Source: Waddliaceae bacterium
GTDB taxonomy: Bacteria; Chlamydiota; Chlamydiia; Chlamydiales; Waddliaceae
DNA: 64,000 nucleotides
Direction of reading: 5' to 3'
Assembly: GCA_963724325.1 (NCBI GenBank)
Contig: CAVRUH010000001.1
Location: forward strand, 768,001 to 832,000
Each line of letters opens with the position of its first letter. The stretch's first letter is position 1. Below, in pieces: positions 1,360 to 6,630 of the stretch. The notes under the pieces were generated by a model. That model worked only from the letters and a program-made list of their open reading frames with translations. It ran no database searches and was not told the origin of the DNA. The translations under genes and the position numbers were made by a program.

Positions 1360-1443
1360 CGTAAGCGTCAAACTAACCCATCCTGATATTTGCCTTCGCT
1401 ACGGCGAGGGCAAATATCAGGATGGGTTAGTTTGACGCTTACG
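1360..1443. repeat. 84-bp near-perfect hairpin (MITE/REP-like) with termini GTAAGCGTCAAAC...GTTTGACGCTTAC
   Basis: cgtaagcgtcaaactaacccatcctgatatttgccttcgc-tacg-gcgagggcaaatatcaggatgggttagtttgacgcttacg: 40-bp stem with one T.G pair and a TACG loop. Confidence 0.9.
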
Positions 1444-4304
1444 TATTTCCGGTTTGGAGTGACCCAATTTATTGGGTCTTTTTCCGAGCCGAATTTATTC
1501 GGCTCGGTGGAGGGCGACACCTTGCCCTCCTTAGGTGAATGGCAAAATCTTGCCATGCACAGGGCCGAATAAATTCAGCCCTGAAAAAGACCTAATGAAT
1601 TAGGTCACTCCAAATTAGACTGAGCGTTGAGTTAGGCGACGGTTCCGGTTTGACGCTTACTTTCCGGTTTGGAGTGACCCAATTTATTGGGTCTTTTTCC
1701 GAGCCGAATTTATTCGGCTCGGTGGAGGGCGACACCTTGCCCTTTTTAGGTGAATGGCAAAATCTTGCGATGCACAGGGCCGAATAAATTCAGCCCTGAA
1801 AAAGACCTAATGAATTAGGTCACTCCAAATTAGACTGAGCGTTGAGTTAGGCAACGGTTCCGGTTTGACGCTTACTTTCCGGTTTGGAGTGACCCAATTT
1901 ATTGGGTCTTTTTCCGAGCCGAATTTATTCGGCTCGGTGGAGGGCGACACCTTGCCCTCCTTAGGTGAATGGCAAAATCTTGCCATGCACAGGGCCGAAT
2001 AAATTCAGCCCTGAAAAAGACCTAATGAATTAGGTCACTCCAAATTAGACTGAGCGTTGAGTTAGGCAACGGTTCCGGTTTGACGCTTACTTTCCGGTTT
2101 GGAGTGACCCAATTTATTGGGTCTTTTTCCGAGCCGAATTTATTCGGCTCGGTAGAGGGCGACACCTTGCCCTCCTTAGGTGAATGGCAAAATCTTGCCA
2201 TGCACAGGGCCGAATAAATTCAGCCCTGAAAAAGACCTAATGAATTAGGTCACTCCAAATTAGACTGAGCGTTGAGTTAGGCGACGGTTCCGGTTTGACG
2301 CTTACTTTCCGGTTTGGAGTGACCCAATTTATTGGGTCTTTTTCCGAGCCGAATTTATTCGGCTCGGTGGAGGGCGACACCTTGCCCTCCTTAGGTGAAT
2401 GGCAAAATCTTGCCATGCACAGGGCCGAATAAATTCAGCCCTGAAAAAGACCTAATGAATTAGGTCACTCCAAATTAGACTGAGCGTTGAGTTAGGCGAC
2501 GGTTCCGGTTTGACGCTTACTTTCCGGTTTGGAGTGACCCAATTTATTGGGTCTTTTTCCGAGCCGAATTTATTCGGCTCGGTGGAGGGCGACACCTTGC
2601 CCTCCTTAGGTGAATGGCAAAATCTTGCCATGCACAGGGCCGAATAAATTCAGCCCTGAAAAAGACCTAATGAATTAGGTCACTCCAAATTAGACTGAGC
2701 GTTGAGTTAGGCGACGGTTCCGGTTTGACGCTTACGTATTTCCGGTTTGGAGTGACCCAATTTATTGGGTCTTTTTCCGAGCCGAATTTATTCGGCTCGG
2801 TGGAGGGCGACACCTTGCCCTCCTTAGGTGAATGGCAAAATCTTGCGATGCACAGGGCCGAATAAATTCAGCCCTGAAAAAGACCTAATGAATTAGGTCA
2901 CTCCAAATTAGACTGAGCGTTGAGTTAGGCGACGGTTCCGGTTTGATGCTTACTTTCCGGTTTGGAGTGACCCAATTTATTGGGTCTTTTTCCGAGCCGA
3001 ATTTATTCGGCTCGGTGGAGGGCGACACCTTGCCCTCCTTAGGTGAATGGCAAAATCTTGCGATGCACAGGGCCGAATAAATTCAGCCCTGAAAAAGACC
3101 TAATGAATTAGGTCACTCCAAATTAGACTGAGCGTTGAGTTAGGCAACGGTTCCGGTTTGATGCTTACTTTCCGGTTTGGAGTGACCCAATTTATTGGGT
3201 CTTTTTCCGAGCCGAATTTATTCGGCTCGGTGGAGGGCGACACCTTGCCCTCCTTAGGTGAATGGCAAAATCTTGCCATGCACAGGGCCGAATAAATTCA
3301 GCCCTGAAAAAGACCTAATGAATTAGGTCACTCCAAATTAGACTGAGCGTTGAGTTAGGCGACGGTTCCGGTTTGATGCTTACTTTCCGGTTTGGAGTGA
3401 CCCAATTTATTGGGTCTTTTTCCGAGCCGAATTTATTCGGCTCGGTGGAGGGCGACACCTTGCCCTCCTTAGGTGAATGGCAAAATCTTGCGATGCACAG
3501 GGCCGAATAAATTCAGCCCTGAAAAAGACCTAATGAATTAGGTCACTCCAAATTAGACTGAGCGTTGAGTTAGGCGACGGTTCCGGTTTGACGCTTACTT
3601 TCCGGTTTGGAGTGACCCAATTTATTGGGTCTTTTTCCGAGCCGAATTTATTCGGCTCGGTGGAGGGCGACACCTTGCCCTCCTTAGGTGAATGGCAAAA
3701 TCTTGCCATGCACAGGGCCGAATAAATTCAGCCCTGAAAAAGACCTAATGAATTAGGTCACTCCAAATTAGACTGAGCGTTGAGTTAGGCGACGGTTCCG
3801 GTTTGACGCTTACTTTCCGGTTTGGAGTGACCCAATTTATTGGGTCTTTTTCCGAGCCGAATTTATTCGGCTCGGTGGAGGGCGACACCTTGCCCTCCTT
3901 AGGTGAATGGCAAAATCTTGCCATGCACAGGGCCGAATAAATTCAGCCCTAAAAAAGACCTAATGAACTAGGTCACTCCAAATTAGACTGAGCGTTGAGT
4001 TAGGCAACGGTTCCGGTTTGACGCTTACTTTCCGGTTTGGAGTGACCCAATTTATTGGGTCTTTTTCCGAGCCGAATTTATTCGGCTCGGTGGAGGGCGA
4101 CACCTTGCCCTCCTTAGGTGAATGGCAAAATCTTGCGATGCACAGGGCCGAATAAATTCAGCCCTGAAAAAGACCTAATGAATTAGGTCACTCCAAATTA
4201 GACTGAGCGTTGAGTTAGGCAACGGTTCCGGTTTGATGCTTACTTTCCGGTTTGGAGTGACCCAATTTATTGGGTCTTTTTCCGAGCCGAATTTATTCGG
4301 CTCG

Positions 4305-5790
4305 CTCAAGTTTGGCGGTTTCTCATATTTTTGAGAAAAAACTTTCAAAAAAAAGAGAAGACACATAATATTTTTGTTTTTCACGCAAATGAGGACAAAA
4401 AAATATGTGCCTTCTCGAAACTTTTCTATCACTAGTCTCCCTATGGAGACCAGCATTTTGTAAACAAGACACCTTTAGAAGAGTCAAAGATCACGCTGTC
4501 GCGACTGTTTGCTCCTTGGGACGCCATACGATCACAAATCTTATCATTTGGCTTGGAAAAGATCAATTAGATCCTACAGCCGATTATAGATTATACAATG
4601 AATATAAGTGGAATGTCGAGGATCTTTTTAACCCTTTATTGGAAAAGGCAATGCCGTTTTTTGGAGATGATTATGTTGTTGTTGGAGCCGACGACACTCG
4701 TATTCGCAAAAGAGGAAAGAAGATCCCTGGAACATCTTGGGGAAGGGATCCATTATCACCCCCATTTCAAGTTAATTTAATGTGGGGGCAAAGATTTCTT
4801 CAATTTTCATTTCTACTTCCTATGTACAATCATTCATCAGTCAGTGCACGAGCATTGCCTATAAGATTTATTCATACTCCTCCTTTAACAAAACCTGGTA
4901 AAAGAGCAAATGCAGCAGAAATATTAACATACAAGAAATTATGTAAGACTCAAAATTTATCGACTCGGTATATAGAAGAGGTAAGAAAATTGAGGGAGCA
5001 TTTAGATGCAATAGGGTGTACAAAAAAACAACTTATGGTCACTGACGGTAGTTTCTGTAATAGAATTTGCATGAATTTAAACATGCCAGGAGTTGAAGCA
5101 CTAGCACGCGCCAGAAAGAATTCAAAACTATGTTATCGGGCTGAAGGCAATGGTAGACGCACATATGGGGTTAATAAATTCACTCCAGAGCAAGTACGTC
5201 AAGATGATAGTATACCATGGCAGTCTGCAATTTTCTTTTATGGTGGTGAATGGAGAAGAATAAGATTTAAAGTATTGCGAGATGTATTATGGCAATCTGG
5301 CACAAAGACTAGACCGATGAGATTATTGGTCGTAGCACCGTTGCCTTATGTGAAAAATGGGATTAGAAATTACCGCCAACCCGCCTATCTATTAACAACT
5401 GATCTCGAGGCCACAGCAGAATTCCTTCTTCAGAGTTATTTAGACAGATGGCAGATAGAAGTAAACTTCAGAGAGGAAAAATCTGTATTGGGTGTTGGAG
5501 AGGCCCAAGTATGGAGTGAAAAGTCAGCTGAAAGACAGCCATCATTTAGGGTTGCAGTATATAGTGCCTTATTATTGTCTAGCATTCTGAAATACAAGGA
5601 TGTGCCACCAATTGATGAAGAGATTCCGAAATGGAGAGACAAGCCACAAAGAAATACCTGTAGAGCATTAATAGGGATGATTAGAAGTGAAACTCTAGAA
5701 AATATAGAAAGTATAATAGATTTAGAATTAACTAGGCCGATGTTATCGGCAATTTTTCGAAAAGCAGCCTAAAAAACCGCCAAACTTGAG
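4305..5790 (+). mobile_element. Insertion sequence, 1486 bp, IS701-like (DDE), 17-bp TIRs, flanked by a 22-bp direct repeat
   Basis: Left end CTCAAGTTTGGCGGTTT (4305-4321), right end AAACCGCCAAACTTGAG (5774-5790); CGAGCCGAATTTATTCGGCTCG at 4283-4304 and 5791-5812, present once in the uninterrupted units. Confidence 0.92.
4405..5772 (+). CDS. DDE transposase (IS701-like/IS4 superfamily)
   Basis: 455 aa; motifs ADDTRIRKRGKKIPG, VTDGSF and YLDRWQIEVNFREEK (YREK-like); fills the TIR-bounded element. Confidence 0.9.
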   Translation: MCLLETFLSLVSLWRPAFCKQDTFRRVKDHAVATVCSLGRHTITNLIIWLGKDQLDPTADYRLYNEYKWNVEDLFNPLLEKAMPFFGDDYVVVGADDTRIRKRGKKIPGTSWGRDPLSPPFQVNLMWGQRFLQFSFLLPMYNHSSVSARALPIRFIHTPPLTKPGKRANAAEILTYKKLCKTQNLSTRYIEEVRKLREHLDAIGCTKKQLMVTDGSFCNRICMNLNMPGVEALARARKNSKLCYRAEGNGRRTYGVNKFTPEQVRQDDSIPWQSAIFFYGGEWRRIRFKVLRDVLWQSGTKTRPMRLLVVAPLPYVKNGIRNYRQPAYLLTTDLEATAEFLLQSYLDRWQIEVNFREEKSVLGVGEAQVWSEKSAERQPSFRVAVYSALLLSSILKYKDVPPIDEEIPKWRDKPQRNTCRALIGMIRSETLENIESIIDLELTRPMLSAIFRKAA

Positions 5791-6630
5791 CGAGCCGAAT
5801 TTATTCGGCTCGGTGGAGGGCGACACCTTGCCCTCCTTAGGTGAATGGCAAAATTTTGCGATGCACAGGGCAGAATAAATTCAGCCCTGAAAAAGACCTA
5901 ATGAATTAGGTCACTCCAAATTAGACTGAGCGTTGAGTTAGGCAACGGTTCCGGTTTGACGCTTACGTATTTCCGGTTTGGAGTGACCCAATTTATTGGG
6001 TCTTTTCCGAGCCGAATTTATTCGGCTCGGTAGAGGGCGACACCTTGCCCTCCTTAGGTGAATGGCAAAATCTTGCGATGCACAGGGCCGAATAAATTCA
6101 GCCCTGAAAAAGACCTAATGAATTAGGTCACTCCAAATTAGACTGAGCGTTGAGTTAGGCAACGGTTCCGGTTTGACGCTTACTTTCCGGTTTGGAGTGA
6201 CCCAATTTATTGGGTCTTTTTCCGAGCCGAATTTATTCGGCTCGGTAGAGGGCGACACCTTGCCCTCCTTAGGTGAATGGCAAAATCTTGCGATGCACAG
6301 GGCCGAATAAATTCAGCCCTGAAAAAGACCTAATGAATTAGGTCACTCCAAATTAGACTGAGCGTTGAGTTAGGCGACGGTTCCGGTTTGACGCTTACTT
6401 TCCGGTTTGGAGTGACCCAATTTATTGGGTCTTTTTCCGAGCCGAATTTATTCGGCTCGGTGGAGGGCGACACCTTGCCCTCCTTAGGTGAATGGCAAAA
6501 TCTTGCCATGCACAGGGCCGAATAAATTCAGCCCTGAAAAAGACCTAATGAATTAGGTCACTCCAAATTAGACTGAGCGTTGAGTTAGGCAACGGTTCCG
6601 GTTTGACGCTTACCTTACAATCCCTAAGGA

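Follow-up and report, generated by a model that had tools for sequence, protein, structure and literature searches.

What are the repeats that follow htpG in the Waddliaceae bacterium assembly GCA_963724325.1, and how did so many come to lie head to tail? The window analysed here is a stretch of 64,000 nucleotides (contig CAVRUH010000001.1, positions 768,001 to 832,000) in which an array of units of about 215 bp, preceded by a short hairpin, lies between htpG (encoding HSP90) and an outer-membrane efflux protein gene (OEP). An initial annotation of the window had proposed either a multimeric structured RNA or a site where a mobile unit accumulates. We argue, with reasonable rather than strong confidence, that the array consists of 17 tandem REPIN units (pairs of inverted repetitive extragenic palindromic, REP, sequences) behind a miniature IS66 insertion sequence (IS), that it likely arrived there as a non-autonomous passenger with IS66 ends, and that it likely grew in place by means of its own direct repeats. 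The genome that holds the window (G000; 2.37 Mb in 11 contigs, 84.6% complete) is cited by its contigs C1, C3, C5, C7 and C11; other G and L numbers denote the chlamydial genomes and loci with which it was compared.

Tandem Repeats Finder detected a period-215 repeat with 98% matches in two tracts, 1430-4304 (13.3 copies) and 5791-6613 (3.8 copies). Cutting at a common 13-bp end motif resolved them into 17 head-to-tail units (1443-6613), about 3.66 kb of repeat. The initial annotation had correctly described 17 tandem units without variable spacers between convergent genes (htpG on the plus strand, OEP on the minus strand), and its claim that the array is non-coding also stands, the longest stop-free frame within 1443-4304 being 66 aa. 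It had called the units identical, but the 16 uninterrupted ones comprise 12 distinct sequences; five sites are polymorphic, each at 3-8 of the 17 units, and unit lengths are 215, 217 and 218 bp, with three units retaining an additional GTA at their start. The repeat layout does not fit a CRISPR array, as the units lack unique spacers. The element lies 70 bp past the htpG stop, and the leader hairpin reported there at 84 bp is confirmed: it measures 82 bp with perfect 34-bp arms, and one extra flanking pair brings it to 84.

Every unit carries two inverted TGGAGT-footed hairpin arms that together form one long hairpin (z -11.0). Judged by its sequence, this core is a REPIN associated with a REP-associated tyrosine transposase (RAYT). 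The outer arms read NTGGAGT, the first base being variable, and the inner hairpins stand on GTGG, GTAG or GTGA feet; TGGAG followed by a hairpin occurs 131 times, against 4-25 times for six control words. The genome has a single Y1 match, a 180-aa protein that scores 79.3 on the NCBIfam RAYT model (cut-off 80) and in which the HYH and YxxxNP motifs are both intact. Directly upstream of its gene the same arms form a 1.5-kb array, and repeats occur on that side only. Relatives of this RAYT were found in 26 of 400 other chlamydial genomes, and the closest (G397, 68% identical) has inverted arms on either side that are homologous to those of the unit. A TGGAGT foot with a hairpin was present at 20 of 24 RAYT-relative loci versus one of 35 control loci, while three control feet reached 0-2 of the 24. 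In its HYH motif and proline-rich N-terminus the RAYT of G000 agrees with subclass 2.8 of PMC6006769, a match of signatures rather than a placement in a tree, and GT[AG]G feet are given for that subclass in the parts of the paper available to us, a scope that applies to all papers cited here. Across the RAYT clade (L134-L157) the repeats combine TGGAGT, a hairpin and a T-run, with stems that vary between genomes.

The second component is IS66. PF03050 (IS66 TnpC) matched in 87 of 300 genomes, and an end profile was built from 32 ends of 16 chlamydial IS66 elements, paired from 31 loci (15 loci without visible paired ends were left out, and two pairs, L114 and L115, were hand-picked). Both ends of the leader, L1 and L2, score 30.8 bits on this profile (leave-one-locus-out median 25.5), and the leader is therefore a miniature IS66; 14 of 4.7 million genome positions exceed 20 bits, all within this family. 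A comparable 51-bp hairpin of two fused IS66 ends lies at L114:883-933, about 360 bp from its parent IS66, and provides a model for the leader. At the right end of the unit, the outer 13 bp score 19.5 bits and positions 14-22 score -11.7, under all 32 true ends, which leaves 7.8 bits over 22 bp. This right tip closes each of the 17 units, the last at 6601-6613, and it is here that 14 of the 17 are short of exactly 3 bp. The exact 13-mer closes IS66 elements beside TnpC in L084 and L070. Among 400 other genomes it matched in 11, singly in 10 of them (approximately the control rate), with 17 matches in G048. Searches with the right end yielded two chance-level BLAST matches among plasmids and, for a 20-nt version in a metagenome scan, one match at a gene end with no element.

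IS66-ended miniature elements with other hairpin cargo were observed in G048 (L052-L062), at L091:3500-3634 and in G027 (L064), their flanks often inverted rather than direct. G048 has 23 end matches at no more than one mismatch, with inner 106-112-bp tandem units in variable number; the flanks of its IS66-ended elements are of low complexity, and searches there found neither a Y1 gene nor IS66 TnpB/TnpC.

The dispersed copies and further arrays that the initial annotation proposed to look for are both present: 45 copies with the same spacer occur in the genome, as four arrays (17, 7, 5 and 3 units) and 13 solo copies. The palindromic core is spread more widely (142 arms, 33 loci). In other genomes, two of 60 relatives matched the unit, over 30-36 bp only. 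No empty htpG site was found, the htpG neighbours differing in all five relatives compared there. IS66 transposition generates 8-bp target duplications, and perfect 8-bp duplications flank four of 13 right-tip loci (C1:196737, C1:280327, C1:419658, C11:25204), the same number as among the 16 true chlamydial IS66 elements. These duplications argue against an IS91-type rolling-circle element; the PF04986 (Y2) search matched nowhere, controls included. Composite loci lie between convergent genes in 11 of 18 cases versus 154 of 858 gaps (two locus pairs are non-independent and one call is doubtful), and such convergent intergenic placement is expected of tolerated REP sites. The copies at C7:317853-318060 and C7:321166-321372, which lie inside a tandem gene duplication, have a decayed right tip and have lost one inner hairpin; they are probably old insertions. 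Arrays without IS66 tips occur at C5:207909, C7:65105, C7:340982 and C11:29752, and the IS66-free arrays of this genome have periods of 106-112, 147-168, 154 and 245 bp. The 245-bp units (C7:65105-66812; seven arms) each consist of half a REPIN with about 160 bp of captured flank.

Variation among the units bears on how the array grew. Two variants are present in all 17 units and elsewhere only in the solo copy at C1:196737, and the 7-unit array on C7 has its own variant in seven of seven units. Between units there is neither an IS66 left end nor a target duplication. Together with the shared private variants this indicates a single founder at the htpG locus, and the 17 units likely expanded in place. 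When the polymorphic sites are compared two by two, all four combinations occur for nine of the 10 pairs, and no run of units is repeated, a pattern that points to repeated exchange between units over one rolling burst. The proposal of an actively amplified or homogenised non-autonomous element is supported, while that of a site of repeated accumulation fails on the private variants and on the lack of duplications and left ends between units.

The unit also carries a record of where it may have formed. Its 31-bp spacer, between REPIN and tip, copies on the minus strand the 3' end of a groEL paralog (G000:C11:30648-32249): its final codons, its stop and the adjoining flank. Five IS66-free 196-bp units are found there (G000:C11:29743-30658). 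The groEL stop is at the same codon in three of five orthologs, and a same-genus genome has an arm remnant, TTTGGAGT, directly behind its groEL stop. The 196-bp and 218-bp units differ by 22 bp located between two copies of TCCGGTTTG, and of the eight bases that lead into the REPIN in the composite, seven agree with the far flank of the groEL array. Inspection by eye revealed no orphan tail beyond the C11 array. From these alignments, the 3' end of the groEL paralog is the likely birthplace of the array unit.

While the anatomy of the array, its family links, the target duplications, the groEL match and the private variants are directly observed, we infer the order of events, the enzymes and the route of expansion as follows. 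A RAYT-associated REPIN would have been located just behind the groEL paralog, and a tandem duplication would have taken in both the REPIN and about 30 bp of the groEL end; the IS66-free 196-bp array on C11 would be what remains of this stage. A miniature IS66 would then have been placed 5 bp from a REPIN arm. The unit may have acquired its 13-bp IS66 tip, and with it the period of 218 bp, when the tandem junction and the inner IS66 end slipped against each other at the GTTTG that each contains. Using the outer left end and the tip, an IS66 transposase acting in trans could have moved the composite and left 8-bp duplications. The founder at htpG would have grown by unequal exchange or slippage, initially through the 13-bp direct repeat that the inner IS66 end and the tip share and later between whole units, with gene conversion shuffling the variants. 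The IS701-like element of unit 14 would have entered later. Table 1 gives the features of the locus.

Table 1. Features of the htpG-OEP interval, in window positions
Feature	Positions	Strand	Details
3' part of htpG (HSP90), left host gene	1..1290	+	
Left half of another TGGAGT-footed REP arm, likely insertion target	1318..1360	+	Similar arms at G000:C7:68636 and C1:77265
Miniature IS66 'leader', 82-bp hairpin	1361..1442	.	Two full IS66-type ends: L1 1361-1382, L2 1421-1442
Array part 1: units 1-13 and beginning of unit 14	1443..4304	+	
REPIN core, unit 1	1448..1616	.	Evidence: sequence, fold, family census, RAYT flanks
Unit 1, arms A and A'	A 1455-1478; A' 1589-1612		Arm A: TGGAGT foot 1455-1460, hairpin 1461-1478, then T-run
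Unit 1, inner parts	1485-1582		Hairpin B 1485-1506; two GT[AG]G/GTGA-footed hairpins 1507-1560; hairpin B' 1561-1582
Unit 1, spacer	1613..1643	-	Copy of last three codons of groEL paralog, stop (1632-1634) and 3' flank
Unit 1, right tip	1644..1660	-	4 bp of REPIN arm start and outer 13 bp of IS66 end (1648-1660)
22-bp target duplication (whole hairpin B)	4283..4304 (left copy); 5791-5812 (right copy)	.	
IS701-like insertion sequence in unit 14	4305..5790	+	Transposase ORF (open reading frame) 4405-5772, DDE_5
Array part 2: remainder of unit 14 and units 15-17	5791..6613	+	
Outer-membrane efflux protein gene (OEP), right host gene	6631..8028	-	

Several observations weigh against this history. 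The 8-bp duplication is absent at the htpG locus and at nine of the 13 right-tip loci overall. On the far side of the array the right half of the target REP arm is also absent; the two losses at htpG suggest that an adjacent deletion may have followed insertion. Neither TnpC nor TnpB of IS66 (PF03050, PF05717) was found in the 84.6% complete genome, so the mover is unseen; TnpC is present in four of six same-family genomes. At groEL, the last three residues (AVA) are unlike the acidic ends of relatives, and the repeat could therefore have brought its own gene tail to groEL. Because the present groEL locus is free of IS66 sequence, the graft requires a lost intermediate, and the first tandem junction lacks clean microhomology. 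Within the array, the exact loss of 3 bp at the tip suits a transposase cut as well as slippage, the B' site fails to polarise the history cleanly (12 versus 8, spacer-less copies), and the near-random mixing of variants could partly be assembly consensus noise.

Which enzyme, if any, added the units can be asked of the same parts. The RAYT may have done most of it, through HUH cleavage, strand transfer and rolling-circle-like extension, the IS66 tip being a passenger in the amplified stretch. REP arms do occur in every array of the family whatever the flank, the 1.5-kb array adjoins a RAYT gene that looks intact, and the IS66-free array has C|T at its new junction, the dinucleotide that the E. 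coli TnpA-REP cuts (PMC8266576, PMC3333891). Yet C|T at a single junction is weak evidence, mosaic variants without repeated blocks require exchange between units, and the unit ends coincide with the 13-bp repeat common to the inner IS66 end and the tip; moreover, the IS66-ended elements of G048 have variable tandem inner units with no Y1 match. We therefore regard mainly RAYT-driven growth as unlikely, though worth keeping in view. Alternatively, an IS66 transposase may have placed a right tip beside the inner left end again and again, by one-ended or sister-chromatid transposition, or solo copies may have inserted repeatedly. This would explain why every junction falls exactly at the IS66 tip, why the 3 bp missing from the 215-bp form are missing at that very point and why a short left-end form also breaks at the tip. 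It sits poorly with the lack of left ends and duplications between units, the locus-private variants, the existence of IS66-free arrays and the failure to find a transposase in G000, and we consider it improbable. A division of labour is also conceivable, in which the RAYT amplifies the TGGAGT-footed REP in tandem, each unit brings a 13-bp IS66 tip, and the unrelated DDE transposase of IS66 ships units or arrays; we put forward such a relay only tentatively.

Assembly error is a further concern, in that the element may be real and its copy number or unit sequences an artefact. The evidence from reads covers only parts of the array, no short-read contig bridged either outer junction (an uninformative result), and the variants are near linkage equilibrium. 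Against this, unit 14 contains an IS whose 22-bp duplication is clean, the variants are locus-private, and other multi-copy elements are resolved on the 1.1-Mb contig. The tandem junction and a C-to-G variant (nine of 17 units) also recur in independent short-read contigs: the head-to-tail boundary between units is covered by contigs of X1 and X3, two runs of one study, and one array variant is found in X6, although all three represent related populations from which the copy number at htpG is not derivable. An artefact thus appears quite improbable. Least probable of all is a selected multimeric RNA, read through from htpG and processed to 215-nt units, as the initial annotation had suggested. 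The unit does fold far better than its shuffles (z -11.0 as DNA, -12.5 and -11.4 as RNA for the two strands) and lies close behind htpG, but both strands fold equally well. An Rfam scan of 1290-2200, which the annotation had proposed, returned no family near threshold, only sub-threshold generic hairpin matches to miRNA models, and no sigma-70-like promoter was found in 1200-1900. The array is absent behind htpG in five of five relatives (one has an N-run there), the unit occurs in one of 61 genomes searched, and insertions of an IS and an intron are tolerated. Each REPIN arm is terminator-like on its own strand, including the first arm of every unit. Terminator-like behaviour in both directions, separating htpG from the efflux gene, is predicted for the array as a side effect only. 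No function is needed to account for it, and an RNA role is without support.

The array has itself been invaded. A 1486-bp IS701-like element with a 455-aa DDE_5 ORF splits unit 14; its transposase scores 137 bits on NF049999, under the cut-off of 170. Eight full copies occur in the genome, with exact 22-27-bp palindromic duplications at seven and a near-exact one at the eighth; published IS701 target duplications are of 4 bp (PMC2266710). REP arms are also entered by a group II intron, detected with RF02005 and TIGR04416 but missed by RF00029, at the same base of a distal arm at C1:876338, C7:331761 and C7:341296. Two of these three copies were traced to their 3' end, and the intron also occurs in run X3. 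Of the linked genes that the initial annotation had proposed to look for, a Y1/RAYT gene is thus present, an IS66 transposase was not found, and the reverse transcriptase belongs to this intron. A reverse-transcriptase-driven origin was rejected because the intron lies within the REP arms as an invader. Two further repeats were noted: a different short array (9-bp units in inverted blocks) behind htpG in the same-genus genome G001 (L128), and a 2.9-kb element, present twice (C3:17825-20767, C7:17056-19997), that has long inverted ends and carries a zinc-ribbon ORF.

Comparison with described systems places each component in a known class. As in the REPINs of Pseudomonas fluorescens SBW25 (PMC3116915), two inverted REPs form a long hairpin, lie outside genes, cluster beside a RAYT gene and build arrays of near-identical units that include flanking DNA. 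Tandem, locus-conserved arrays with flanking DNA are also described for E. coli BIME-2 (bacterial interspersed mosaic elements; PMC3333891) and for GTAG repeats generally (PMC3733652). The scale differs: 17 units and 3.7 kb here, against a largest REPIN cluster of four REPINs and largest REP arrays of 12 GI and GIII sequences in the SBW25 account (PMC3116915), as do the TGGAGT foot, the IS66 tip on the unit and movement with 8-bp duplications. Like BIME-2 and its REPtron (PMC3333891, PMC8266576), the copies are conserved within a locus and variable between loci, serve as IS targets and suggest two-step spread followed by local amplification, for which RAYT-driven models exist in E. coli (PMC3333891). 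Unlike BIME-2, the stems are perfect and short, the foot is different and there is a second, DDE-based route of spread (PMC3333891, PMC8266576); the RAYT shows subclass 2.8 features (HYH, proline-rich N-terminus; PMC6006769) rather than those of the E. coli subclass 2.2. Passenger-carrying tIS66 elements, whose ends begin GTAAGCGTC, are known (PMC12888890). With IS66/tIS66 and IS-derived miniature inverted-repeat elements our element shares GTAA-starting inverted ends and a non-coding passenger (PMC12888890), and also 8-bp duplications. It differs in that transposase genes are absent, the basic composite has three ends, and the right end is a 13-bp graft without the conserved CCAT block (PMC12888890). 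Its REPIN passenger amplifies, so every unit supplies a new right tip, unlike in IS66/tIS66. A match to a known array-forming REP family, which the initial annotation had named as refuting its reading, was largely found: REPINs and BIMEs form such arrays routinely (PMC3116915, PMC3333891), but no description of TGGAGT- or GGAG-footed REPs, chlamydial REP arrays or IS66-ended REPINs, and so of this particular family, was found in the literature searched, a search whose scope did not extend to supplements and subscription journals. Additional file 4 of PMC3733652, on REP-like elements at REPtrons, may list the TGGAGT type.

Here we have characterized an array that is selfish DNA, an unusually long BIME-like REPIN array hitched to IS66 ends, in which known kinds of element are combined and no new functional system is involved. 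The groEL stop codon marks every unit with its likely place of origin, and the ancestral, solo and amplified states coexist in one genome; spread and local amplification are therefore separable and can be tested. On our reading, an IS66 end should still function when only about 13 bp of it remain. If the relay of two transposase systems were true, the same hand-over would have recurred in G048, L091 and G027, whose IS66-ended elements carry other REP cargo. Finally, the chlamydial RAYT clade, with its clear cognate repeat, provides useful material for biochemistry.

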